Below, in pieces: positions 3,165 to 17,575 of a stretch of 19,716 nt of DNA (its first letter is position 1; every line of letters starts with the position of its first letter). The translations under genes were made by a program, and so were the position numbers. Source of the DNA: Myxococcota bacterium (GTDB lineage Bacteria; Myxococcota_A; Polyangia; Polyangiales; Sandaracinaceae). The stretch is taken from NCBI GenBank assembly GCA_036149055.1, contig JAYZQJ010000199.1:1-19716 (forward strand), read 5' to 3'. The notes under the pieces were generated by a model. The model had not been told where the DNA came from. It did no database searches and worked only from the letters and a program-made list of their open reading frames with translations.

Positions 3165-4364
3165 CTACGGAGTCACCGGGCGGAGCCGGCCGAGCACGAC
3201 CTCGAAGCGCGCGCCGCCGAGCGGGCTGTCCGAGACCCCCACCCGTCCGCCGTGCGCTTCGGCGAGCTGCCGCACCACCGCGAGGCCGAGGCCCGAGCCC
3301 GAGAGGCCCTCCTCGTGGGCGCGCGCGTACGGCTCGAACACCCGATCGCGGGCCTCCGGGGGCACGCCGGGGCCGTCGTCGTCGACCAGCAGGCCCACCT
3401 CGGAGCCGCGCCGCTGGAGGTGGATCTGCACCCGGTCCTCGGCGAAGCGCTGGGCGTTGGTGACGAGGTTGGTGAGGACGCGCTCCATCGAGTGGAGGTC
3501 CACCTGATGGATCAACGTGCGCGGGGCCTCGCCGAGCGCGATGCGGTCGTCCCGCAGGTCGTCGATCAGGTCGCGAGCCATCGCCACGAGATCGGCCTCG
3601 CGGAAGTCGAAGGTCATCGCCCCGTGCTCCAGGCGGTGCAGATCGTGGAGGTCCTCGACCATGCGCGAGGCGCGGACCGCGTTCCGGTGGATCAGCTGGG
3701 CGATGCGCTGGAGCCCGGGCTGCGCCTCGAGCTGCGGGTGATCGAGCAGCAGCTCGCTGCCGTTGACGACCACGCTGAGCGGGGAGCGGAGATCGTGGGT
3801 GACGCTCCGGGCGCGCCGCCGCTCGGCGTCCCGCTGTCGCTCCGCCTCCTGGCGCTGGGCGGACTGGATGTCGACCTGGAGCCGCAGCTCGATCTCGGCC
3901 ACCACCGCGTCGGCGAGGCCGCGGAGCACGTCGACCTGGGCGTCGGTCCACCGGCGAGGCTCGACGTCGATCACGCAGAAGCTGCCGAGCAGCTCGCCCC
4001 CGGCCAGCCGGATGGGCACGCCCGCGTAGGCGACGACGTTCAGGTCGCGGATCGCGAGGTTGTCGCAGACCGCGGGGTGCTCGCGCGCGTCCTCCACCAC
4101 CAGCGGCGCCTCGCTGAGGACGACGTGCTGGCAGAACGAGTGCGAGAGCGGCGTCTGCCGCTCGGCCGCCCACGGCTCCTCGAGGCCGACCTGGCTCTTG
4201 AAGAACTGACGGTGATCGTCGACGAGCGACACCAGCGCCACGGGGGCGGAGAGCGCGCGCGAGGCGAGCCGGGTGAGGCGATCGAAGACCTCCTCCGGCG
4301 GGCTGTCCAGGAGCCCGGTTCGCTTCAGCGCGGCGAGTCGATCGCGGTCGTCCAACCGGGGCAC
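3165..4364 (-). CDS. GAF-domain sensor histidine kinase (soluble, 399 aa)
   Basis: GAF: RLAAL..TGLLDSPPEEVFDRLTRLA...SFCQHVV...YAGVPI...GSFCVID. H-box THDLRSPL, N-box NLVTNA, G1 DDDGPG, F-box RVFEPY, G2 GSGLGLA. Confidence 0.95.
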   Translation of the reverse strand: MPRLDDRDRLAALKRTGLLDSPPEEVFDRLTRLASRALSAPVALVSLVDDHRQFFKSQVGLEEPWAAERQTPLSHSFCQHVVLSEAPLVVEDAREHPAVCDNLAIRDLNVVAYAGVPIRLAGGELLGSFCVIDVEPRRWTDAQVDVLRGLADAVVAEIELRLQVDIQSAQRQEAERQRDAERRRARSVTHDLRSPLSVVVNGSELLLDHPQLEAQPGLQRIAQLIHRNAVRASRMVEDLHDLHRLEHGAMTFDFREADLVAMARDLIDDLRDDRIALGEAPRTLIHQVDLHSMERVLTNLVTNAQRFAEDRVQIHLQRRGSEVGLLVDDDGPGVPPEARDRVFEPYARAHEEGLSGSGLGLAVVRQLAEAHGGRVGVSDSPLGGARFEVVLGRLRPVTP

Positions 4365-5121: not shown

Positions 5122-5237
5122 CGACGCCCTCCCCGCGCCGGGATCTGGTCCATCGCGCCCCACCGGGAAGGGCGTGCGCGATCGCACGCGTCCAACCCCG
5201 CGACATCGCGAGAAGAACGCGCCGCGACCGCCTCGGG

Positions 5238-5267
5238 TTGACACGCCTCGGGCGCCGTCCGTAGAAC
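5238..5267 (+). promoter_or_regulatory. Putative sigma70-type promoter of the lipA operon
   Basis: Perfect -35 TTGACA (5238-5243), 18-nt spacer, TAGAAC (5262-5267), about 90 nt upstream of the lipA ATG. Confidence 0.5.
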
Positions 5268-5358
5268 ACGCTCGACCGCTCGTCCGAGCGGGGGTGGGCG
5301 CGAGTCTCCGCGCGTCCTAGATCCCGAGCATCGCCCCCGCGGACGAGAGGAATCATTC

Positions 5359-6303
5359 ATGTCGCAGCCCGCCCCCAAGAGAGAGCGCAAGCCCGAGTGG
5401 CTGAAGGTCCGGCTCCCCGGCGGAGACCGCTATCAGCGCCTGAAGGAGACGTTCCGCAAGCTCGACCTCCACACCGTCTGCGAGGAGGCGCGCTGCCCCA
5501 ACGTCGGCGAGTGCTGGGGCGAGGGCACCGCGACGCTGATGATCCTCGGCGAGACCTGCACCCGCGGGTGCCGCTTCTGCGCCGTGAACACCGGTGACCC
5601 CGGCGGCATGGTCGACCCGCGCGAGCCCGAGAACGTCGGCCGCGCGCTGTCGCAGCTCGACCTCGCCTACGTCGTCCTGACGATGGTCGATCGCGACGAC
5701 CTGCTCGACGGCGGCGCGGCCCACGTCGCGCAGACGGTGCGGCGCATCAAGCACTACAGCCCGGAGATGCTGGTCGAGGTGCTGGTCGGCGACTTCGCCG
5801 GGGTGCGGCGCGACGTCGAGACGACGGTGCGGGACGGCCGAGCGGACGTCTTCGCCCACAACGTCGAGGTGGTGCCGAGCCTCCAGCGCAAGATGCGCGA
5901 CGCGCGCTGCAGCTGGGAGCGCTCGATGGACGTGCTCCGCTGGGCCAAGGAGGCGGGCGCGAACATCACGAAGAGCTCGCTGATGGTGGGCTGCGGCGAG
6001 GCCGAGGACGACGTGTACGAGGCGATGGAGTCGCTGCGCGCCAACGACGTCGACGTGCTGACCATCGGCCAGTACCTGCGCCCCACCAAGAAGCACGCGG
6101 AGCTGGTCCGCTACGTCGAGCCGGCGGAGTTCGATCGCTACCGCGAGAGGGGCCTCGAGATGGGCTTCCGCTACGTGGCGTCCGGCCCGCTCGTCCGCTC
6201 GTCCTACCGCGCGGCGGAGGCGTTCCTGAAGGGGATCCTGAAGGGCGCGGGCGACTACGACGATCGCTACGGAAAGAAGACCCGCCTCGCGGTGGTGAGC
6301 TGA
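5359..6303 (+). CDS. lipA: Lipoyl synthase (radical SAM)
   Basis: RKPEWLK, auxiliary cluster motif CEEARCPNVGEC (Cx4Cx5C), radical SAM motif CTRGCRFC, HNVEVV, TIGQYLRP, SGPLVRSSY. RBS GAGAGG. Confidence 0.98.
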   Translation: MSQPAPKRERKPEWLKVRLPGGDRYQRLKETFRKLDLHTVCEEARCPNVGECWGEGTATLMILGETCTRGCRFCAVNTGDPGGMVDPREPENVGRALSQLDLAYVVLTMVDRDDLLDGGAAHVAQTVRRIKHYSPEMLVEVLVGDFAGVRRDVETTVRDGRADVFAHNVEVVPSLQRKMRDARCSWERSMDVLRWAKEAGANITKSSLMVGCGEAEDDVYEAMESLRANDVDVLTIGQYLRPTKKHAELVRYVEPAEFDRYRERGLEMGFRYVASGPLVRSSYRAAEAFLKGILKGAGDYDDRYGKKTRLAVVS

Positions 6304-6311
6304 GGGAGAGC

Positions 6312-7208
6312 ATGGAAGCCGGAGCCATTTCGAGCCCCACGACCGAGCGCGAGGCGCTGCACGCGCTCTACGAGCAGATGGTGCGGGTGCGCACCGTCGA
6401 CGCCCGCCTCGCCGCCCTCGGAGACGCCGGGCGGATCGGCTTCCTCCCCCGCACCCTCGGCCGGGAGGCGGCGCTCGTCGGCGCGCTCGACGGGCTCGAG
6501 GACGGCGACTGGCTCTTCCCGACCCACGCCGACTGGGCGCTCGCGCTGCTGCGCGGCATGGACGTGGCGACCTTCGCGCACCGGGTCTTCGGCACCGCGA
6601 GCGATCCCCTCAAGGGCCGCGACATCCCGAGCGGGGTGAGCGCCAAGGGGCTGAACGTCGCGAGCGTGAGCGCGCCCGCCGCCACCCACCTCCCCCACGC
6701 GGTCGGCGTGGCCTGGAGCGCGCGCCGGCGGGGCGAGGACGTCGTGAGCGTGGCGCTCTTCGACGGCCCCGAGGTCGACGCCGCCGACTTCCACACCGGC
6801 GTGAACTTCGCCGGCGTGATGAAGGCGCCGACGATCTTCCTCTGCCGCGTCCGCGAGGGCGAGCCGGGCAGCGCCGAGCACGCGGTGGCCTACGGCGTCC
6901 ACGCGGTCGAGTGCGACGGGACCGATCCGGCGGCCGTCTCTCGCGCGGTGCGCGAGGCCCGGGAGCGCGCGCTCGCCGGCGAGGGCCCCACCCTGATCGA
7001 CGTCGTCCTGAAGGGCGACGACGACGCGATGGCGCGGGTCGACGGCGTCGACGAGGCCGGCATCCGCAAGCGCACCGAGGAGTCGCTCTCGAGCGCGTTC
7101 GACGCGGCGACCCGGGCGAGCGAGCCCGCGCTCGGCACGCTCTTCAGCGACGTCTACGAGGCGGTCCCGCCTCACCTCGACCGCCAGCGCGACGAGATCG
7201 TGCGCTGA
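6312..7208 (+). CDS. 2-oxoacid dehydrogenase E1 alpha-like protein with a degenerate active site (298 aa)
   Basis: E1alpha scaffold motifs GRIGF..GREA, DWLFP, KGR, HAVG.AW, DFH..VNFA.V..P.IF, AYG....DG.D, ARERA..GEGPTLI, LFSDVY...HL..Q, plus operon position. The GDG...NN motif and the YR...HS.DD loop are missing. Confidence 0.9.
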   Translation: MEAGAISSPTTEREALHALYEQMVRVRTVDARLAALGDAGRIGFLPRTLGREAALVGALDGLEDGDWLFPTHADWALALLRGMDVATFAHRVFGTASDPLKGRDIPSGVSAKGLNVASVSAPAATHLPHAVGVAWSARRRGEDVVSVALFDGPEVDAADFHTGVNFAGVMKAPTIFLCRVREGEPGSAEHAVAYGVHAVECDGTDPAAVSRAVREARERALAGEGPTLIDVVLKGDDDAMARVDGVDEAGIRKRTEESLSSAFDAATRASEPALGTLFSDVYEAVPPHLDRQRDEIVR

Positions 7209-7243
7209 GCCTGCCCTTCAGAAGAGATCGATCGGAGAAGACC

Positions 7244-8218
7244 GTGGCTGAGATGAACATGGTGCAGGCGATCAACGGCGCGCTCGCGAGCGAGATGCGC
7301 CGTGACGATCGCGTGGTGGTCCTCGGTGAGGACGTCGGCAAGGTGGGCGGCGTCTTCCGCGTCACCGCCGGGCTCTACGACGAGTTCGGCGAGGATCGCT
7401 GCATCGACACGCCGCTCGCCGAGGGCGGGATCATCGGCACCGCGATCGGCATGGCCCTCTACGGCATGCGGCCCGTCCCGGAGATCCAGTTCGCGGACTT
7501 CATCTTCCCCGCGTTCGACCAGATCGTGAGCGAGGCGGCGAAGATGCGCTGGCGCTCCGGCGGCGAGTACAGCTGCCCGATGGTGATCCGCACGCCCGTG
7601 GGCGGCGGCATCCGCGGCGGCCTCTACCACTCGCAGTCGCCCGAGTCCCTCTTCATCCACACCGCCGGCCTCAAGGTGGTCTGCCCCTCGAACCCCTACG
7701 ACGCGAAGGGGCTGCTCCTGGCGTCGATCCGCGACGAGGACCCGGTGCTCTTCATGGAGCCGAAGCGGGTCTACCGCGCGGTGAAGATGGACGTGCCCGA
7801 GGACGACTACACCGTGCCGCTCGGCAAGGCGAAGGTCGTGCGCGAGGGCGACGGCGTCACCGTCGTCAGCTGGGGCGCGATGGTCTACGAGGCGCTCAGC
7901 GCCGCCGAGCAGGTCGCCAAGGACGGCGTCGACTGCGAGGTGATCGATCTCCGCACCCTGTGGCCGCTCGACCTCGACACCATCGTCGAGAGCGTGAAGA
8001 AGACCGGCCGGCTGGTCGTGGTGCACGAGGCGCCGAAGGCCTGCGGGTTCGGCGCCGAGATCATGCAGCTCGTCACCGAGAAGGCGTTCCTCCACTTCGA
8101 GGCGCCGCCGGCGCGGGTGACCGGCTTCGACACGCCGTTCCCCTACACGCTCGAGAACGAGTACCTGCCGCTGGCGCACCGCATCGCGCCGGCCGTCATG
8201 ACCACCGCCCGCTACTGA
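7244..8218 (+). CDS. 2-oxoacid (branched-chain or pyruvate) dehydrogenase E1 beta subunit (324 aa)
   Basis: GEDVG..GGVFRVT.GL, DTPLAE.GI.G.A.G, EIQFADF, GGLYHSQSPE, FMEPKR.Y, EVIDLRTL.PLD, SVKKTGR. GTG start at 7244 after GGAG. Confidence 0.97.
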   Translation: MAEMNMVQAINGALASEMRRDDRVVVLGEDVGKVGGVFRVTAGLYDEFGEDRCIDTPLAEGGIIGTAIGMALYGMRPVPEIQFADFIFPAFDQIVSEAAKMRWRSGGEYSCPMVIRTPVGGGIRGGLYHSQSPESLFIHTAGLKVVCPSNPYDAKGLLLASIRDEDPVLFMEPKRVYRAVKMDVPEDDYTVPLGKAKVVREGDGVTVVSWGAMVYEALSAAEQVAKDGVDCEVIDLRTLWPLDLDTIVESVKKTGRLVVVHEAPKACGFGAEIMQLVTEKAFLHFEAPPARVTGFDTPFPYTLENEYLPLAHRIAPAVMTTARY

Positions 8219-8229
8219 CCACCGCCCGC
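8199..8229 (+). repeat. Perfect 14-bp direct repeat TGACCACCGCCCGC duplicating the E1 beta 3' end
   Basis: Copies at 8199-8212 and 8216-8229. Confidence 0.7.
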
Positions 8230-8252
8230 AACCGAGAACCGAGGAGCCCCCC

Positions 8253-9677
8253 TTGTCCACGTTCGAGTTCAAGCTGCCCGACATCGGTGAGGGCGTCATG
8301 GAAGGCGAGATCGTCAGCTGGCTGGTCGAGCCCGGCCAGGACGTCCGCGAAGACGATCCGATGGTCGAGGTCATGACCGACAAGGCGACCGTGACCATCG
8401 GCGCGCCGAAGACGGGCACGATCCAGGAGCTCTTCGCTGGCGTGGGGGACGTCGTCGAGGTCGGCTCGGTGATCGTGACGCTCGCGACCAACGGCGCCGC
8501 GGCCGCCGCCCCGGCGCCCGCCGCCCCCGCCCAGAAGAGCGACGAGGGCACCAAGAAGCACGCGGCTCCGCCGCCGCCGTCGGAGCCGCCGAAGGCGAAG
8601 GACGACGGCCCCGCGGCCACCGCGGTCGGCGACATCAAGGAGAGCCTCCCCGGCTCCTCCTACTTCGCCAAGACCGACTCCGCGGTGAGGAGCGCGGCCG
8701 CCTCCACCGGCGAGGTCGTGAGCGACAAGCCGCTCGCCACCCCGGCCACGCGCAAGCTCGCCCGCGATCTCGACGTCGACCTCCGCTACGTGACGCCCAG
8801 CGGCGACGGCGGCCGGATCACCAAGGACGACGTGAAGGCGTTCGCCGCCGGCGAGTCCGCGCCCACCACGCCCGGCACCACGAAGGCCCCCACCGCCGAG
8901 ACCCGCGCGGTCGGCAAGCCGGCGAGCGGGCGCGCCCCGGTCAAGATCGAGGCGCCGACCCCGGCCCAGCAGTCGCTCGAGGAGCGCAAGCCGTTCGTCG
9001 GCATCCGGCGGAAGATCGCCGAGCGGATGCAGACCACGAAGAACACCGCGGCCCACTTCACCTTCGTGGAGGAGTGCGACGTCGCCAAGCTCAAGGAGCT
9101 GCGCGGGCGGCTCAAGGGCGCGGCCGAGGAGGCGGGCGTGAAGCTCACCTTCCTGCCCTTCATCGTGAAGGCGGTCGTGGCCGCGCTGAAGAAGCACCCC
9201 GTGCTCAACAGCGCGCTCGACGAGAGCACCAACGAGCTGGTCTACCGCCGCTACTACAACATCGGCATCGCCGCCTCGACGGATCAGGGCCTGATGGTCC
9301 CGGTGGTCAAGGACGCCGACCGCCGCTCCATCGTCGAGATCGCGGCCGAGATCGCGCGCCTCGGCGCCGCGGCCAAGGAAGGCAAGATCGCGAGCGAGGA
9401 CCTCAGCGGCTCGACCTTCACGATCACCAGCCTCGGCAAGCAGGGCGGCCTCTTCGCCACCCCGGTGCTCAACTTCCCCGAGGTCGGCATCCTCGGCGTG
9501 CACCAGATCAAGCAGAAGCCGGTCGTTCGCGACGGCTCGATCGAGATCGGCGAGGTGATGCTCCTGAGCCTCTCGTTCGATCACCGCATCGTCGACGGCC
9601 ACGTCGGCGCGGCCTTCGCCTACGACATCATCGCGTACCTCGAGGACCCCGACCGCCTCTTCCTCGAGATGGCGTAG
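8253..9677 (+). CDS. Dihydrolipoamide acyltransferase, E2 component (474 aa)
   Basis: Single lipoyl domain (LPDIGEG...VMTDKA), Ala/Pro linkers, peripheral subunit-binding domain (ATPATRKLARDLDVDL...GRITKDDV) and catalytic DHRIVDG. TTG start after GAGGAG. Confidence 0.97.
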   Translation: MSTFEFKLPDIGEGVMEGEIVSWLVEPGQDVREDDPMVEVMTDKATVTIGAPKTGTIQELFAGVGDVVEVGSVIVTLATNGAAAAAPAPAAPAQKSDEGTKKHAAPPPPSEPPKAKDDGPAATAVGDIKESLPGSSYFAKTDSAVRSAAASTGEVVSDKPLATPATRKLARDLDVDLRYVTPSGDGGRITKDDVKAFAAGESAPTTPGTTKAPTAETRAVGKPASGRAPVKIEAPTPAQQSLEERKPFVGIRRKIAERMQTTKNTAAHFTFVEECDVAKLKELRGRLKGAAEEAGVKLTFLPFIVKAVVAALKKHPVLNSALDESTNELVYRRYYNIGIAASTDQGLMVPVVKDADRRSIVEIAAEIARLGAAAKEGKIASEDLSGSTFTITSLGKQGGLFATPVLNFPEVGILGVHQIKQKPVVRDGSIEIGEVMLLSLSFDHRIVDGHVGAAFAYDIIAYLEDPDRLFLEMA

Positions 9678-10368
9678 CTCGAACGGCGCAGGCGCGGGCG
9701 GCCGAGGCGACCCAGGACAGGGCGGCCTCGTGCTCGGCGCGGATCGCGCCGTCCGGCGGCACCTCGATCGTCCCGAGCTCGGCGTGGATGCGCTCGAGCT
9801 CGGCGGGCCAGTCCTCGAGGGAGCGGACGACCGCGAAGCGCTCCTCGAGCTCCGGCGCCTCGGCCACCGCCCGCGCGAGGCGCTCGAGGGCGACGCCGGC
9901 CCAGGCTCGCTCGGCCTGGCACGCGTAGGCGGGCTCCGGGTGTCGGGCGAGGATCGTCTCGAGCGCCCGCCCGAGGCTCATCAGCGCGTAGGACGCCGAA
10001 TTGCCGGGCGGCTCGTCCGTGCGCAGGAGGAGGTCGCCGTCGTCCGCGCAGCCCTCGCACCCGAGCTGGTCGAGCAGCGCCCTCGCGCCGAGCAGGGCCA
10101 CCCGCGCCGCGTGATCCAGGGCGACGAGCTGCGCCTCCGACGGCGCGTCCCCGCCCCACGCCGCGTGATGCAGCAGATCGAGCTCGGCGACGAGCTCGTT
10201 CAGGCGACGCCAGGCCTCGGCCCGACCCGCCGCGGCTTCAGAGGCGGCCGACTCGGAGGCGGAGGGCGGCGGCTGGGAAGGCGACGGCCGTGAGGGCGGC
10301 GGCTGCGGCGCGCGAGACGGAGCGCTCGCGCACGCGACCAGCAGGACCGCGAGCGGGGCCAGCCTCAC
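9628..10368 (-). CDS. Hypothetical lipoprotein, helical (~246 aa)
   Basis: GTG 10368 overlaps the upstream TGA (GTGA) and has a GGAGG RBS. Signal MRLAPLAVLLVA-C, then a Pro/Ser linker. The 3' end overlaps E2 by 50 nt. Confidence 0.65.
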   Translation of the reverse strand: MRLAPLAVLLVACASAPSRAPQPPPSRPSPSQPPPSASESAASEAAAGRAEAWRRLNELVAELDLLHHAAWGGDAPSEAQLVALDHAARVALLGARALLDQLGCEGCADDGDLLLRTDEPPGNSASYALMSLGRALETILARHPEPAYACQAERAWAGVALERLARAVAEAPELEERFAVVRSLEDWPAELERIHAELGTIEVPPDGAIRAEHEAALSWVASAARACAVRATPSRGRGGRGPRGTR

Positions 10369-11384
10369 TGCGCCTCCTGGAGAAGCGGGGCGAGCCGAGG
10401 GTCGCGACGCGCGTCTCGGAGCGCCGCCTCGCACGCCGCGCACGCCGCGGAGCGGAGGGCCTCGAGCACCGCGGCCGCGCGCGCCGGCTGACCGTCACGC
10501 GCGAGCCCCCGGGCCAGGTGGTAGCGCACGTACGCGTTGCTCGGGTCGACCGACGCCGCCTCGACGAGGAGGGACATGGCCGCCGCGTCCCGGTCGCCCC
10601 GCTGGTGCGCGAGGGCGTCCCGCACCAGCCGCTGCGCCCGGGTGCGCGCGAGGAACGGGACCCGCGCCGCCGTGAAGGCCGGGAGCGCGACCATCGACCA
10701 GTGATCGGGAGCCCGCTCCCGTCGTTCCGCGCGCCGCAGGGCGGGCAGATCCACCCAGTGCACGGTCGTGTCGAAGTGACCGGTCCCCGGCGCGGTGTCG
10801 TGCCCACGGACCAGCACCGCCGCGCGTCCGCCTCGCGGCGAGGGCCACACGCCGACGACGATCGGGAGGTCGGCCCCGCTCTCGAGGACCGGCTCGTCGT
10901 AGGTCTCGGGGGCGCCCCGCAAGATCGTGAGCCGCAGGAGCTCGCGCCACCCCTCGATCGCCAGCACCTCCACTGTGAGGAGCTGCCGCGCGCGCCCCTC
11001 CTCGGTGGGCGGAGCGTCCGTCAGGTGCGCGCGCACGAGGCCGGCGTCCAGGGGCCGCGCCGCGGACGAGAACGGGCCGGCCGACCAGCGCCGCGCCGAC
11101 GCCTCGCCGCCGTCTCGCATCGGGGCGTCGCAGGCCACCGCGCGCGCCGGGTCGGCGTGCAGGTCGAAGCACTCGGCGCGCGCCCCGTCCGGGCGCCAGA
11201 CCTCGACGTAGCGGTGGCTCTCGCAGCCCACGTAGGAGCGGACCTCGACGGCGAGGCGCCCGTCGGCCGACCACCCGCGCGGCGCGCGCTCGGTGTGTCC
11301 GTCACAGCACGCGCAGGCCGCCGCCACCGACGGGGAGGCCAGCCAGACGAGCGCCAGCGCGCCGATCGTGCGGGGCCCGATCAC
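10365..11384 (-). CDS. Secreted protein with N-terminal CACC motif and C-terminal TPR-like helices (~339 aa)
   Basis: C-terminal part of track ORF 10365..13706. GTG 11384 overlaps the upstream TGA. Signal peptide ...LASPSVAAA-CACC. C-terminus AASVDPSNAYVRYHLARGLARDG...CAAC...ARRDPRLAPL. Confidence 0.75.
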   Translation of the reverse strand: MIGPRTIGALALVWLASPSVAAACACCDGHTERAPRGWSADGRLAVEVRSYVGCESHRYVEVWRPDGARAECFDLHADPARAVACDAPMRDGGEASARRWSAGPFSSAARPLDAGLVRAHLTDAPPTEEGRARQLLTVEVLAIEGWRELLRLTILRGAPETYDEPVLESGADLPIVVGVWPSPRGGRAAVLVRGHDTAPGTGHFDTTVHWVDLPALRRAERRERAPDHWSMVALPAFTAARVPFLARTRAQRLVRDALAHQRGDRDAAAMSLLVEAASVDPSNAYVRYHLARGLARDGQPARAAAVLEALRSAACAACEAALRDARRDPRLAPLLQEAQ

Positions 11385-12703
11385 TCGCCCGGGAGGAGCC
11401 AGTCCATCCCGCCGGGCGCGTGGGGATCGATCTCGCCGGCGAGCGCGTCCTGGGCGTCGGCGGCGGCCGTGTCGCCCGACGCGCGGTAGATCGCGGCCGC
11501 GGTCGCGTGCAGCTCCGCCGTCCGGTAGGCGGTGGCGAGCGCGCCCTCGATGCGGGTCCGGGCGTCGTCGACGCGGCCGGCGCGGAGCAGGGCCTGCGCG
11601 AGCTTCACCGTCGCCTCGCCGCCCGGCCGGAGCGCGTGGTTCGCCTCGGCGAGCTCCAGCGCGCGAGCCGCCTCGCCGTGGGCCAGGAAGTGGTCGAGCG
11701 CGTGCCCGTAGGCCGCCTCGGGGAGCGTCTCGAGCTGCGCCTCGTAGGTGGCCCGGGCGCGCGCCCTCCACTCGGCCGCCTCCTCGTCGCGGCCGCGCTC
11801 GAGGAGCACGTCGGCGAGCGCGTCCATCAGCTCCGGGCTGTCGGTGCGCGCGACCACGTCGCGGTAGGCGACCTCGGCCCGGCGCCAGTCCTCGCGGAGC
11901 GCGTGGATCTCGGCGACGTGCTCGTCGACCAGCCACCACCCCGAGAAGACCGCCTGCGCGTCCCGGTAGTGCGCGAGCGCCTCGTCCCAGCGGCCGCGGT
12001 CGAGATCCATGATGCCCATCTGCAGGTGGGTCCACGCGCGACCCTGATCGGCGTCGCCCACGATCCGGCCGAGCGAGGTGACCAGCCAGCTCTCCGCCTC
12101 CATGAAGCGGCCGGTCTGCCAGAGGTCGTACGCGATTCGGAACGCGCCGGAGCTCGACTCCCAGGTCTCGTCGGCCCGCCGATGGAGGCGCTCCGCCTCC
12201 TCGTAGCGGCCGGAGTGGAAGGCCACGTCGCCGCGGAGATGGTCGACGGCGATCTTGGTGGTGTCCGACAGGATCACGCCGGCCTCGATCCGATCCAGAT
12301 CGGCCGCGGTCCGATCGAGACGGTGAAGGGTGAAGTGCAAGCTGGCGCGCGTGAGCAGCGGACCGGAGCCCTCCGCCGCGAGCTCGAACGCCCGGGACAG
12401 CGCCTCCTCGGCGCGTCGATAGTCTGCGTAGTCGCCGGTGAGCTGCGCGCGGGCGGCGTAGAGGGCGGCGACGGTGTCGAGCCGACCCCAGTCGTCGTCG
12501 AAGCGCTCGGCGGCGCGCTCGGCGGCGGCGATGCGCGCGTCCAGGTCTCGGACGGCGCGATCGTAGTCCGTGTCTCCCGTCGGCGTGGGCGCCGCGGCCT
12601 CGCCGCTCGCTTCGAGCGGGGGCGGCGCGTCGTTCGGGTTGCTGCAGCCGCAGCCGACGGCGGCGAGCGCGAACAGGAGCGCGAGGGGAGCGGGACGGTG
12701 CAT
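11381..12703 (-). CDS. Tetratricopeptide-repeat lipoprotein (440 aa)
   Basis: Lipobox (LAAVGC) and many TPR-like helical pairs (GDVAFHSGRYEEA, GIMDLDRGRWDEALAHY, LAQALLRAGRVDDA). Lies directly downstream of the DUF4331-like genes. Confidence 0.88.
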   Translation of the reverse strand: MHRPAPLALLFALAAVGCGCSNPNDAPPPLEASGEAAAPTPTGDTDYDRAVRDLDARIAAAERAAERFDDDWGRLDTVAALYAARAQLTGDYADYRRAEEALSRAFELAAEGSGPLLTRASLHFTLHRLDRTAADLDRIEAGVILSDTTKIAVDHLRGDVAFHSGRYEEAERLHRRADETWESSSGAFRIAYDLWQTGRFMEAESWLVTSLGRIVGDADQGRAWTHLQMGIMDLDRGRWDEALAHYRDAQAVFSGWWLVDEHVAEIHALREDWRRAEVAYRDVVARTDSPELMDALADVLLERGRDEEAAEWRARARATYEAQLETLPEAAYGHALDHFLAHGEAARALELAEANHALRPGGEATVKLAQALLRAGRVDDARTRIEGALATAYRTAELHATAAAIYRASGDTAAADAQDALAGEIDPHAPGGMDWLLPGE

Positions 12704-12717
12704 GAGTCGATGCCTCG

Positions 12718-12775
12718 AAAGAAAAGGAGAAAGGGAAAGCGCCGCGGCGGGCAGCGCGAGCCACCCGCCGCGACG
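12718..12775 (-). terminator. Intrinsic terminator or attenuator inside the exported-protein operon
   Basis: Minus-strand RNA CGUCGCGGCGGGUGGC-UCGC-GCUGCCCGCCGCGGCG forms a 16-bp stem with 3 G-U pairs, followed by CUUUCCCUUUCUCCUUUUCUUU. Begins 6 nt after the stop at 12782. Confidence 0.75.
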
Positions 12776-12781
12776 TGAGGG

Positions 12782-13933
12782 CTACGGCGTGTGCGGCGCA
12801 GCCAGGTAGGGGAACGTGTCGAGGAACTCGACGTCGTTCGCGGCGGGGTTGAGGGCGCCGACGAGCGACGTGGCGTCCTGGCCGGGCACGCCCAGGTCGA
12901 GCAGCACCACCGCCAGGGTCACGTCGATCACCGGATCCGGGAGGGTCCGGCCGTTCGGGAACCCGGGCGCCATCGAAGGATCGATGGTCAGCGTGTCCGG
13001 GATGATGAGCGGTCCGCCCTGCGAGACGCACGAGCCCACCGCGCCGCCGCTGCAGGGCACGAGCGAGCGGTCCAGGAGGTCGTCGTCGAGCGCGGCGTGG
13101 ATCGCGTCGATGTTCGCCACAATCTCGGGCACGAAGGTGCCGGCCACGTCGTCGGACGGATCGCCGTCGTTGTACTGGTTCTTGGTGGTGCCGGCCGAGC
13201 CGCTGATCAGCGCCGTGGCGACCGCGGGCATGCCCATGCGGTCGACGCGGGTGTAGTCGCCGGGATCGTCGGTCCGGAAGGTCCAGCCGCCGGTGCAGAC
13301 GCCGCCGCCGCTCGCGCCCGCGTGCGGGCAGTGAAGCGCGGTGTCGTCGGAGCGGATGGCCACGCCGAGGTGGTAGAGACGGCACTGCACGGTGTCGCCC
13401 TCGGTGACGCCGATCTCGCCGGTGTCGTCGAGCGCGGCGCAGGTGGTCATGCACTCGGCCATGTCGCCGTACTGCGCGTCGCCGCCGGTGCAGACGTTCA
13501 TGACGGTGCCGCAGTAGACCTCGCACCAGTCGCCGCAGACGTTGGCGCCGGTCTCGCCCGCGTGCGGGCAGTGCATCACCGGGTCGTCCCCGGCGGGCGC
13601 GCCGCCGTGGTAGGTGCGGCAGCCGATGGTGTTGCCCGAGGCCGGCCCGCTGGTGGTGACCTCGTCGCCCGCCTCCCAGCCCGCGCTCGTGCACACGTCG
13701 ATGCACTCGTCGCGGTCCGCGTAGATCTCGTTGTCACCCGTGCAGGTCATCTGCACCGTGTCGCAGTAGGTCTCGCAGGTCGGCGTGCTGCCGGTGTCCG
13801 AGTCCGGCATGTCCATGCCCGTGTCCGGGTCCTCCATGCCGCTGTCCGCGGGGGTCTCGCCGTCGTCACAGCCGAAGGCGACGACGCCGAGCGCCAGCAC
13901 CAGGCTCGTCCAGAGAATCGTGTTCGTACGCAT
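12782..13933 (-). CDS. Lipoprotein with two Cys/His-rich repeats fused to a DUF4331 C-terminal-like domain (383 aa)
   Basis: Lipobox VAFG-C and acidic linker. C-terminal motifs RVDRMGMPAV.TALI, PDTL.ID, GFPNGR.L.D.VIDVTL and FPYLAAP. ATG 13933 lies 7 nt after GGAG; GTG 13939 is an alternative start. Confidence 0.85.
   Translation of the reverse strand: MRTNTILWTSLVLALGVVAFGCDDGETPADSGMEDPDTGMDMPDSDTGSTPTCETYCDTVQMTCTGDNEIYADRDECIDVCTSAGWEAGDEVTTSGPASGNTIGCRTYHGGAPAGDDPVMHCPHAGETGANVCGDWCEVYCGTVMNVCTGGDAQYGDMAECMTTCAALDDTGEIGVTEGDTVQCRLYHLGVAIRSDDTALHCPHAGASGGGVCTGGWTFRTDDPGDYTRVDRMGMPAVATALISGSAGTTKNQYNDGDPSDDVAGTFVPEIVANIDAIHAALDDDLLDRSLVPCSGGAVGSCVSQGGPLIIPDTLTIDPSMAPGFPNGRTLPDPVIDVTLAVVLLDLGVPGQDATSLVGALNPAANDVEFLDTFPYLAAPHTP
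13295..13777 (-). repeat. Two tandem ~80-aa protein repeats: CxxYC-x6-C-x6-Y-x5-C-x3-C...G[ND]TxxCRxYH...HCPHAGxxGxxVC
   Basis: Repeat 1 at 13535-13777 and repeat 2 at 13295-13525. All 8 Cys and 3 His are conserved between the copies. Confidence 0.9.
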
Positions 13934-13935
13934 GG

Positions 13936-14595
13936 TCACGCTCCGATCCGCGAGGTGGTGGCCCAGACGTCGAACGCGCCCGAGGAGAGATCCTCGGTCT
14001 CGAGCTCGATGACGATCGCGCTGATGTTCTTGCCCGCGAAGAAGTCGCGGTCGTTCACGAAGCTCAGCGTCCCGGTCGAGAAGGTCTCCTGGAAGCCGGT
14101 GAGGTCGAAGAAGAACGGATCCTCACGGAGGCCGACCCAGAAGAAGCCGTCGGTCACGCCGTCGATCGAGTTCTGGAAGGCCACCGGGCCCGCCTGGGTG
14201 GCGGGATCGCCGCCCGGGATGCCCTCGACCTGGATGCCCCAGTTGCCCGAGGCGTTCTGGCCGAAGCGCACGTAGATGTCGTGGTCGGCGGCCTGGTCGT
14301 CGTCGTTGTCGATGTGGATGCCGTAGAGCACGTCCGCGTCGTACACGGCGGTCTGGCCGTCGACCGGGTCGACGGGGCCGGCGTAGGTCAGCACGATCAC
14401 CGTCTTGCCCTCCGGCGTGGCCCAGGCGTACAGGTCGCCGATGTCGGCGGCCCGATCCCCGTCCACCACGCGATCCGGCGGGTCGTTGTGATCGGCGGCT
14501 TCGGCGCGTTCCGGCGTGGAGCTCCCCACCCAGACGACGCTCCCCAAAAGGCCAAGCGTCAATGCACCGATGAGCACTCTCTTGGTGTGTCTCAT
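13936..14595 (-). CDS. Secreted DUF4331 N-terminal-like protein (219 aa)
   Basis: ATG 14595 after GGAGGAG. Signal peptide ending AEA-ADH. Motifs ADHNDPP, ADIGDLYAW, YGIHIDN, GLREDPFFFDL.GF, DFFAG.NISAIVIE. Confidence 0.87.
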   Translation of the reverse strand: MRHTKRVLIGALTLGLLGSVVWVGSSTPERAEAADHNDPPDRVVDGDRAADIGDLYAWATPEGKTVIVLTYAGPVDPVDGQTAVYDADVLYGIHIDNDDDQAADHDIYVRFGQNASGNWGIQVEGIPGGDPATQAGPVAFQNSIDGVTDGFFWVGLREDPFFFDLTGFQETFSTGTLSFVNDRDFFAGKNISAIVIELETEDLSSGAFDVWATTSRIGA

Positions 14596-14744
14596 CTCTC
14601 CTCCAAGTCGTTGGTCGATCGGAGGAGGCGAGCACAGCGGTGCCGTCGCTCCCCCCGAGCGAATCACCAGGATACGCATACCCGATCGAAAAACGCTACG
14701 GAGTCGGGAGGATCCCCGCGCTGACGCGCCGCCCCCGGCGTGCC

Positions 14745-15641
14745 ATGGTGCCGGCGGTGAGCGATCCCGACGACGAGATCGAAGGAGCTCCGGAGGGCGC
14801 CAGCTGCGCGGAGCACCCCGAGCGGACGGCCCTCGTCACGTGCCCGCGCTGCGGCAGCTACTGCTGCGTCGCCTGCTGGCAGCCGACCTCGCAGCGCTGC
14901 CACCGCTGCCTCGTCCTCGACCCGCCCGAGGTCACGCCCTGGGCGGACCGGAGCCGCGGCCTCTTCCCGCGCCTGCTCGCGACCCTGGTGGACGCCGCCC
15001 GGCCGACCGCCTCGGCGGTGGGCTTCGCGAGCGGGGAGTGGCGGGCGGGGATCTCGTTCGCGCTCTTGACCTTCGTGCCGCTCGCGCTGCTCGCCGGCGT
15101 GGTCCCGCTGACCCACACGCTCGGCTTCCTGCCCCCGTTCCGGGTGGTCACGCTCGGCGCGCCGTCCGAGGCTGCGCTCGGCCTCGACGTGGCCCAGGCG
15201 GTCGGCCTCGGCTTCGTGGTGAAGACGCTCGAGCTGATCCTGCTCGGCCTCCCGTTCCTCAGCCTCTGCCGCGCCTACGGCAAGCCGGTCGCCAGCGAGC
15301 CCGCCCGCCAGGTGCTGCTCTACCGGGCCTGGCTGCTCCCGCTCGGCGGCCCGATCGGCATCCTGCTCAGCTTGCTCGTCTGGGGCGTGCCCCTCGAGGG
15401 CAGCGACGCGCTCACCGCCGCGGCCCAGGTCCTCTCGCTGGCGCCGCTCCTCGTCTTCCTCTGGGCGATGAGCGCGACCGCGCGGGTGCAGGGCGTGGGC
15501 CCGGTGGCCGCCATGGTGGTCGTGCTCGTCTCGTTCCTCGTCATGTACTTCGGCGAGGCGCTGCTCGTGCAAGAGCTCCTCGCGCCGCTGATGCCCGACT
15601 CCGAGACCAGCCGCGAGGCCCTCGAAGCCGCGATGCAGTGA
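14745..15641 (+). CDS. Membrane protein with N-terminal B-box-like zinc finger (~298 aa)
   Basis: CAEHP-x6-TCPRCGSYCCVAC-x7-CHRC, then PW.D and about 5 hydrophobic helices (Yip1-like layout). Start is ATG 14745 or GTG 14757. Confidence 0.8.
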   Translation: MVPAVSDPDDEIEGAPEGASCAEHPERTALVTCPRCGSYCCVACWQPTSQRCHRCLVLDPPEVTPWADRSRGLFPRLLATLVDAARPTASAVGFASGEWRAGISFALLTFVPLALLAGVVPLTHTLGFLPPFRVVTLGAPSEAALGLDVAQAVGLGFVVKTLELILLGLPFLSLCRAYGKPVASEPARQVLLYRAWLLPLGGPIGILLSLLVWGVPLEGSDALTAAAQVLSLAPLLVFLWAMSATARVQGVGPVAAMVVVLVSFLVMYFGEALLVQELLAPLMPDSETSREALEAAMQ

Positions 15642-16231: not shown

Positions 16232-16645
16232 TCAGGGGATCGGCGGCGCCCCGTAGGCCCCGGCGCCCTGCTGTACGGCCTGGTCGATCTCGTCGCCGGG
16301 CTCGTCGTCTCCGGCCGGCTCCGGCTCCTCTTCTTCGGGGGGTGGAGGCGGCGCGCCGTAGGGCGCGGCGATCGCGGGCGGCGAGTCGTCCTCGGGCGGC
16401 GGCGGCGGCGGCTCCGGATCCGGGGGCGCGCCGTAGGGCTGGGCGATGGTCTCCTCCGGAGGCGCGTCGACCCCGCAGGCGGAGGCGACCGACGCGCCGA
16501 AGTAGAAGATCGCGGCGCGGGTCAGGTTGCCGACCCGGGGACCGGCGGCGCGAGGGGGGCGGGCGACGAGCGGCGCGTCACAGAAGACGCACGCCGCGGC
16601 GTCGGCGCGGACGTGACGACGGCAGACCTCGCAGGGGACCAGCAT
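16232..16645 (-). CDS. Zinc-ribbon protein with a hydrophobic helix and three YGAPP repeats (137 aa)
   Basis: C-terminal part of track ORF 16232..17578. MLVPCEVCRRHV...CVFC, then LTRAAIFYFGASVASAC and an acidic Pro-rich tail. YGAPP at 16421-16435, 16346-16360 and 16241-16255. Confidence 0.82.
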   Translation of the reverse strand: MLVPCEVCRRHVRADAAACVFCDAPLVARPPRAAGPRVGNLTRAAIFYFGASVASACGVDAPPEETIAQPYGAPPDPEPPPPPPEDDSPPAIAAPYGAPPPPPEEEEPEPAGDDEPGDEIDQAVQQGAGAYGAPPIP

Positions 16646-16699
16646 GCGGCGAGGATACCGCACTGGAAGGTCGCCGGAGCCGAGGCGTATGTTGCCGCG

Positions 16700-17575
16700 A
16701 TGATCCTGCTCCCGTACGGACACGATCAGTCGGTCTACGGGCGGCAGTGGGCGACCTGGGCGCTGATCGTGCTCAACGTGCTCGTCTTCCTCTTCACCTG
16801 GGTCAGCGGGTTCGGGGTCGAAGACGAGCTCGAGCGACGCACGCGCGCCTTCGAGTCGGTGCTCCTGACCTACCCCGACGCGCAGATCGACGTGTCCGTG
16901 CTCGACGGCGCGCCGGGAGAGCTGCGCGAGGTGCTCTCGGATCTGGTGCAGCTCGACGCCACCGCGCCGCTCACCGAGGGCGACATCGCGCTCGAGGACG
17001 CCACCCGCGACCTGCTCGAGACCTACCGCGGCCTGCCGGCGCAGCGCTTCGGCTACCGCCCCGGCGACCCCTCGGCGCTGAATCTGATGAGCAGCCTCTT
17101 CGTGCACGGAGGCTTCTGGCACCTCTTCGGCAACATGCTCTTCCTCTGGCTCGCGGGCGCGGTCATCGAGTGCTTCTGGGATCGCGGCCTCTTCCTCGGC
17201 CTCTACGTCCTGGCCGGCGTGGGCGCGACCCTCGCGCAGCACCTCTCGGAGCCGCACAGCCTCGTCCCCATCATCGGCGCGTCGGGCGCGATCAGCGGCA
17301 TGCTCGGCGCGTTCGTCGTCGGCTACCCGAAGACCCGGGTCCGCATGCTCTGGGCCGCGATCCCGTTCGGCGTCGGCCACTTCCACGTCCCCGCCTGGCT
17401 GCTGATCCCGCTCTGGGCCGCCATCCAGCTCTTCTGGGCCCTCCTCACCCCACACGACGGCGTCGCGCACTGGGCCCACCTCGGCGGCTTCGCCGTCGGC
17501 GTCGTCGCCGCGGTCGTGGTCAAGCGCATGGACTGGGACATCGCCGACGCCGGCGACGGTCGCTCCGGTATTTGA
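16700..17575 (+). CDS. Rhomboid-family intramembrane serine protease (291 aa)
   Basis: SLFVHGGFWHLFGNMLFLW, catalytic GASG and AHWAHLGGF. ATG 16700. Confidence 0.95.
   Translation: MILLPYGHDQSVYGRQWATWALIVLNVLVFLFTWVSGFGVEDELERRTRAFESVLLTYPDAQIDVSVLDGAPGELREVLSDLVQLDATAPLTEGDIALEDATRDLLETYRGLPAQRFGYRPGDPSALNLMSSLFVHGGFWHLFGNMLFLWLAGAVIECFWDRGLFLGLYVLAGVGATLAQHLSEPHSLVPIIGASGAISGMLGAFVVGYPKTRVRMLWAAIPFGVGHFHVPAWLLIPLWAAIQLFWALLTPHDGVAHWAHLGGFAVGVVAAVVVKRMDWDIADAGDGRSGI

Follow-up and report, generated by a model that had tools for sequence, protein, structure and literature searches.

A lipA-E1α-E1β-E2 operon of a Sandaracinaceae bacterium raises the question of what use a cell has for an E1α gene which is open from end to end, yet codes for a protein apparently lacking its active-site motifs. 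The operon lies in a window of 19,716 nucleotides, i.e., the whole stretch of DNA analysed (contig JAYZQJ010000199.1); its features are collected in Table 1, and the E1α product (P0001) is called α′ in the following. A preliminary description had noted an uninterrupted reading frame with a ribosome-binding site and normal codon bias, an E1β with its Glu and His, and an intact-looking LipA and E2, all of which held up. The frame is open over 298 amino acids and is preceded by the purine-rich stretch GAGGGAGAGC, its GC3 of 0.97 is similar to that of the neighbouring genes, E60 and H129 of β are unchanged across 20 aligned β sequences, LipA passes its family cut-off, and all three Pfam domains were detected in E2. 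A separate contig, obtained independently from a public run, extends over positions 5184-10266 and contains α′ without an indel, which rules out an assembly artefact as the source of the deletions described below. Contigs from RNA libraries of two studies also include α′, but contigs alone can neither rank genes nor demonstrate a transcript. A promoter scan gave no result, and no plasmid match was found at E 1e-40. Elsewhere in the window, two DUF4331 genes are followed by the gene for a TPR protein (minus strand, 11381-14679). Further genes code for a heme-oxygenase-like iron redox protein, a GAF histidine kinase and a rhomboid protease (1183-2127, 3165-4364 (minus) and 16613-17575 (plus)), for which no connection to the α′ finding was noticed.

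Table 1. Features of the operon and motifs within the α′ gene, in window positions
Feature	Positions	Strand	Basis or remark
lipA, lipoyl synthase	5359..6303	+	TIGR00510, 372.9 bits vs. cut-off 310
Purine-rich ribosome-binding region of α′	6300..6311	+	sequence; overlaps lipA stop
α′, catalytically dead E1α paralogue (putative), 298 aa, P0001	6312..7208	+	
PTHA in place of diphosphate-contacting P-x-Y-R	6519..6530	+	human E1α alignment
GRDIPSG in place of GRQMPxH	6615..6635	+	
FDGPEVDAA, destroyed GDG ThDP/Mg motif	6759..6785	+	
DFHTGVNFAGV, retained post-GDG helix	6786..6818	+	D159 equivalent to proton-wire Asp180
CRVREGEPG, NN and inner active-site loop deleted	6843..6869	+	human N221-N222 aligned
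LIDVVLKGDDDA, catalytic-His outer loop deleted	6993..7028	+	
LFSDVY, retained C-terminal motif	7140..7157	+	identical to human residues 363-368
E1β, intact, P0003	7244..8218	+	GTG start at 7244; E60 and H129 present
E2 acyltransferase	8253..9677	+	lipoyl, subunit-binding and catalytic domains

The motifs of α′ were read from an alignment to human BCKDH E1α. Human Y113-R114 correspond to H72-A73 of α′, QMPVH to DIPSG and GEG (192-194) to DGP, with the codon for F150 at 6759, and there is no counterpart to human residues 285 to 333, which include the His291 loop. The alignment thus bore out that GDG, NN with the inner loop, GRQMPxH and the outer His loop are lost, as had been claimed from the letters alone. 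The same description had counted the P-x-Y-R site among the losses; it indeed reads PTHA, but the missing Tyr has no diagnostic value, since it is absent as well from the intact partner α described below, which reads PALRE (Tyr in 0 of 39 copies). The claim of a preserved E1α scaffold agrees with a confidently predicted structure (AF2, pLDDT 91.3) that matches 1ols with a TM score of 0.88 (Foldseek). Pfam E1_dh (PF00676) recognises α′ with 112 bits over residues 21-232 only, and the NCBIfam scores are far under their cut-offs (160 vs. 411). Therefore, α′ belongs to the E1α fold family by sequence and structural homology, and it lacks what marks an active E1α, namely GDG/GEG, NN with the inner loop, and the outer loop with His271/His291. 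The LFSDVY motif, which presumably plays a role in tetramer assembly, is retained.

For a wider comparison, we used 97 dead copies (P0001 and 96 profile-search matches), which had been selected for absent motifs, so that their motif loss is no independent count. The outer-loop segment has a median length of 13 residues in the dead copies vs. 36 in intact ones. Among the 97, FHxxxNF is retained in all, [AG]YG in 95, the C-terminal Phe in 92 and Asp159 in 96%. Retained activity through a shifted DG or another mode of cofactor binding may be thought of in view of Asp151-Gly152 of P0001, one residue off the motif, and of the diphosphate Arg kept by 54 of the 97. We consider this hardly credible because only 11 of the 97 have D/E-G in the shifted window and none has NN; QMPxH and the His loop are likewise absent from all. 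In Geobacillus E1, the GDG, NN, QMPxH and His-loop elements serve to bind Mg and ThDP and assist in catalysis, according to the accessible part of the structural study (PMC2663715). The dead copies also share new residues: His126 (92%), His129 (79%), Asp156 (90%) and Pro46 (100%). In the family, the first three (window positions 6687-6698 and 6777-6779) stand where intact α subunits have Gln, Gln and Ser, and may form a new ligand or metal site. Their position near the old pocket, together with the kept Asp159, would suit an α′ that serves in a mixed tetramer mainly as a sensor, with a metabolite or metal bound in its emptied pocket to tune the working site. The other pocket and loop residues are highly variable and Asp156 is not shared by the dead copies of other lineages, and we regard this role as improbable.

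The operon α is dead, with GDG/GEG missing, in all 24 copies from the 25 genomes of the family, none being identified in the remaining genome (G018, 82% complete), and the closest named homologues of α′ are Sandaracinaceae proteins. Because pairwise NG86 estimates are distorted by GC3 values above 0.9 (0.09-0.75 for α′), we used a codon model on 21 genomes, which gave ω values of 0.102 for α′, 0.035 for β and 0.061 for the intact α. For α′, ω = 1 was rejected (lnL −12248 vs. −13013, 2ΔlnL about 1530). Two checks suggested beforehand, on whether relatives share the dead copy and whether dN/dS lies below 1, thus both came out in favour of a selected non-catalytic role, as proposed in the preliminary description from the preserved fold and now extended by dead copies across lineages. 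Recent decay is excluded by the all-dead family copies and the ω of 0.10. One might still see α′ as a relic heading for loss, its frame kept by the operon context, since it evolves faster than β and the intact α, and the operon α has been lost altogether in several lineages. This reading is already largely refuted and in our judgement very improbable: beyond the rejection of ω = 1, the open frame and the fixed motifs persist in copies just 34-45% identical to P0001, and the contig of a second strain differs from α′ by two listed changes, both synonymous, with no indel. By these sequence measures, α′ is not decaying, and the lost catalytic residues, kept fold, purifying selection and conservation across lineages mark it as a presumptive pseudoenzyme. 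One genome in these comparisons (G023) is unpublished; it contributes a single row to alignments and counts and is the sole basis of no claim.

If α′ cannot bind the cofactor, an intact α should be encoded elsewhere, and it had been suggested to search for an orphan E1α lacking its own β. The genome with α′ (G000) contains three further stand-alone α genes. Two of them (contigs C38 and C140) each have their own β, and we take the C140 pair to be esg-like. The third (P0002, contig C187) is 33% identical to α′ and has GDG, NN, QMPSH and the His loop; its contig holds no β, as expected of the orphan, and the gene lies directly before lpd (E3) with lipB nearby. Together, the α′ operon and the C187 locus supply lipA, lipB, α, β, E2 and E3. 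This lpd-type α was recovered from 24 of the 25 family genomes (all but G012, 84% complete), with lpd as the next gene in 20 of 24 fetched loci. Among solved structures, P0002 matches BCKDH E1 best (283 bits), with Geobacillus PDH E1 close behind (258 bits); branched-chain 2-oxoacids are therefore the most likely substrates, although the closeness of PDH keeps this from being decisive. At P0002 residue 89, all 39 lpd-type copies, also those whose partner is intact, have Leu in place of human Tyr113 (e.g., L001:7978-9081), where other α subunits have a Tyr near the cofactor. In locus L001, lipB near the intact α is followed by two genes for acyl-CoA dehydrogenases (13247-15596), which may give a hint at what the complex produces. 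The same genome as α′ also contains a 748-residue frame ending in a part which we take to be E1β-like, before genes presumably for TCA-cycle enzymes (C277:18542-20785), and an 884-residue frame ahead of an E2, which we assume to resemble homodimeric AceE (C71:6715-9366).

Across the wider sample, 39 of the 41 genomes that have a dead or half-dead copy also yielded an intact α; the two with a dead α′ only are incompletely assembled (G012, 84%, and G025, 70% complete). In some assemblies, the intact α is interrupted, by a stop in G005 and by frameshifts in G010, G037 and G107 that also affect neighbouring genes. In six genomes (G101, G106, G107, G225, G251 and G214), a fully dead and an intact α occur in one operon around a single β. 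Among 76 genomes sampled from the order and classed by their identity to P0002, 42 have the lpd-type α, 28 of them together with a full-length operon α, while 31 have the operon type only and three neither type; motifs were checked for 20 of the 28 two-α genomes, and for others separately. An α1-β-E2-α2 arrangement with both α intact is found in a Planctomycetota record and in 18 of 20 fetched operons of relatives of the Haliangium record (G101). These relatives show that the ancestral operon was lipA-α1-β-E2-α2-lpd, with two intact α and one β. The two intact, differing α flanking one β (L142:871-6124; L295-L313) are a first of the QMP[V/D/N/I]H and YRE type and a second of the QMP[S/C]H and ALRE type, possibly making up a two-substrate E1. 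The intact operon α of family f17 (L231, L232, L234 and L238) start their outer loop with HRLSGH instead of YRxxxH.

Between the intact and the dead state stand half-dead copies in some Polyangiaceae-like records, which keep GEG/GDG and NN and have lost the His loop in 11 of 11 cases, with an intact α present in all five genomes tested. These half-dead operon α (L085, L089, L092, L097, L103, L117, L119, L123, L137, L146 and L153) also lack QMPxH and may still bind ThDP without catalysis. The β tree forces at least three origins of the dead state and rejects a single one (p-AU 3e-7, 45 rows). The α tree, calculated with the motif columns removed, needs three changes, two of them forced; the dead copies of the Haliangium group nest among intact kin, and the remaining dead copies cluster with a support of 92, which may reflect long-branch attraction or a shared origin. 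The safe statement is that α1 appears to have died independently at least two to three times. Seven genomes (G068, G094, G095, G153, G173, G192 and G221) have the lpd-type α alone, with no α′ found, so that this α type can do without a partner in some genomes.

A further clue to what α′ may do comes from the intact partner. The helix following GDG lies on the tetramer interface of human PDH E1 (residues 172-186), according to the part of the preprint available (bioRxiv 10.1101/2022.05.17.492373). At its end (182-186), α′ keeps NFAGV, but P0002 has TFAAK. Of 30 intact α with a dead partner, 28 no longer have Val186, compared with 1 of 63 whose partner is intact, half-dead or absent (omitting four rows of unknown partner state), and the canonical N-[FL]-A-[GAQ]-V occurs in none of the 30 vs. 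49 of the 63. The pattern was first found in the family and G040, and then also in G035 and the Haliangium record. Among 128 conserved columns, only 186 is changed in each of the four lineages of the initial comparison, and in all three outside the family the change is to Arg. An advance prediction that Arg186 signals a dead α′ held in both genomes concerned (G225 and G251). Its second half did not hold: f32 genomes with TFAGV were expected to have a loop-keeping partner, and in four of them none was found; in two f32 genomes whose partner is intact, the residue at that position is Asn. Only four independent pairs lie on well-supported branches, giving p 0.125, and four pairs cannot reach significance. 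Counterexamples are G210 and G171, in which Val186 is kept beside a dead α′ and Phe183 is changed, and G045 (91% complete) has Arg186 with neither α′ nor lipA found. A loss of Asn182 is seen as well in 8 of 51 α whose partner is intact, and the seven lone lpd-type α all have Val at 186. Trp152 of the partner was considered as another reciprocal site; it held within the family and failed across lineages. Taken together, these data suggest that many myxobacteria combine a dead E1α copy with a working copy encoded elsewhere, which is changed at a presumed contact surface and points to a lopsided, one-site enzyme.

We therefore regard α′ as probably a non-catalytic structural subunit of an asymmetric α/α′/β2 E1 with one active site. 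The intact α encoded before lpd would bind ThDP-Mg and form the only active site with β, and α′ would fill the second α position, pack on β and use the retained post-GDG helix to brace the working site, both α being part of one tetramer. In a symmetric pair, the helix of each α would brace the active-site loop of the other, and position 186 would contact that loop. In an α/α′ pair, only α has the loop, so α′ must keep its helix and α is free to refit its own; the helix end of the partner would thus have been freed or refitted once the facing α′ loop was lost. Paralogue lock-in occurs in other complexes, and by analogy the refitted partner may no longer pair well with itself, which would have made α′ indispensable. 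A prediction of the complex of α, α′ and two β N-terminal domains scored 0.91, but still 0.79 with an unrelated protein replacing α, and is counted neither for nor against the assembly.

The preliminary description had named this assembly as one option beside a free inhibitor and a chaperone, and it is now favoured because either of the others leaves a working α2β2 and does not predict a change of the partner. As a negative regulator, α′ would compete for β and form inactive or half-active tetramers beside normal α2β2, with the operon ratio setting the flux. The separate loci of the two α in the family would allow separate control, and the lpd-type α occurs alone in seven genomes. On the other hand, α′ shares its operon with β and E2 and, in six genomes, with the intact α as well, which leaves little scope for such control, and a loss of interface residues by the working α is not predicted; we consider this role unlikely. 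A transient assembly chaperone would hold new β and pass it to the intact α, leaving α2β2. That the α′ gene lies immediately before β in every case seen and that the β-facing C-terminal motif is kept would suit such a function, but the final α2β2 should retain symmetric helix contacts, which the working α has lost in nearly every case with a dead α′, and this role seems rather improbable to us.

Returning to the asymmetric enzyme, the observation is solid and wide, and the mechanism likely, if unproven. With little more than even confidence, we would extend it to a general view: in Myxococcota and the Planctomycetota record, E1 would use two different α on one β, and in several lineages one α would have become an obligate pseudo-subunit, so that nature would offer a ThDP decarboxylase with a single site and no partner cofactor. 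The steps on the way there (two intact, half-dead, dead, lost) would all be visible in living genomes, and the partner interface would have converged on Arg. This graded series with its matching partner change offers a system for studying paralogue lock-in into a heteromer, and position 186 of the intact α may serve as a simple predictor of a dead partner. The annotation of such copies needs correction, as the one of Sandaracinus amylolyticus (AKF03734.1) is filed as an ordinary dehydrogenase α subunit, and reconstitution from the visible operon alone is predicted to yield a dead enzyme. Pseudo-subunits in heteromeric enzymes are already known; a dead E1α as one appears new, since no report of it or of a two-α E1 was found in the literature searched, which omits most subscription journals, among them the classic E1 structure papers.

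Compared to the known α2β2 enzymes, i.e., BCKDH E1 (human 1dtw/2bff, Thermus 1um9, Pseudomonas 1qs0) and Geobacillus PDH E1 (1w85), α′ has the same fold (TM 0.80-0.89), and the system shares the sequence family, the catalytic residues of β and an operon context of β, E2, lipA and lpd. Those enzymes have two identical active α and two sites, whereas here two different α genes, one of them dead, go with one β. Half-of-the-sites E1, in which one site works while the loops of the other are disordered, is a close mechanistic parallel in the accessible portions of two reports (PMC2663715; bioRxiv 10.1101/2022.05.17.492373): α′ lacks precisely the inner and outer loops that are disordered there and keeps the equivalent of Asp180. 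In the proton-wire model, as presented in the same portions, each ThDP is the acid/base partner of the other and the asymmetry alternates; in the proposed enzyme, the asymmetry would be genetically fixed and a second cofactor would be absent. A natural one-site tetramer, if true, would directly test the need for a second cofactor and thus half-site and proton-wire catalysis. For the BCKAD of Myxococcus xanthus, the section available of PMC4048283 names esg (MXAN4564/4565) and MXAN4217 as E2. As far as that section goes, it is likewise a myxobacterial branched-chain complex with E1 and E2 genes apart. Unlike in that system, the esg-like α-β pair is a separate locus here (C140), and is 22-30% identical to the two α. 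The E3-binding protein (E3BP) of the eukaryotic PDC, an inactive E2 paralogue, offers a parallel to the role proposed for α′, since it too has no catalytic activity and serves a structural purpose within a 2-oxoacid dehydrogenase complex. E3BP is derived from E2 and tethers E3, whereas α′ is derived from E1α and would sit in the decarboxylase itself.
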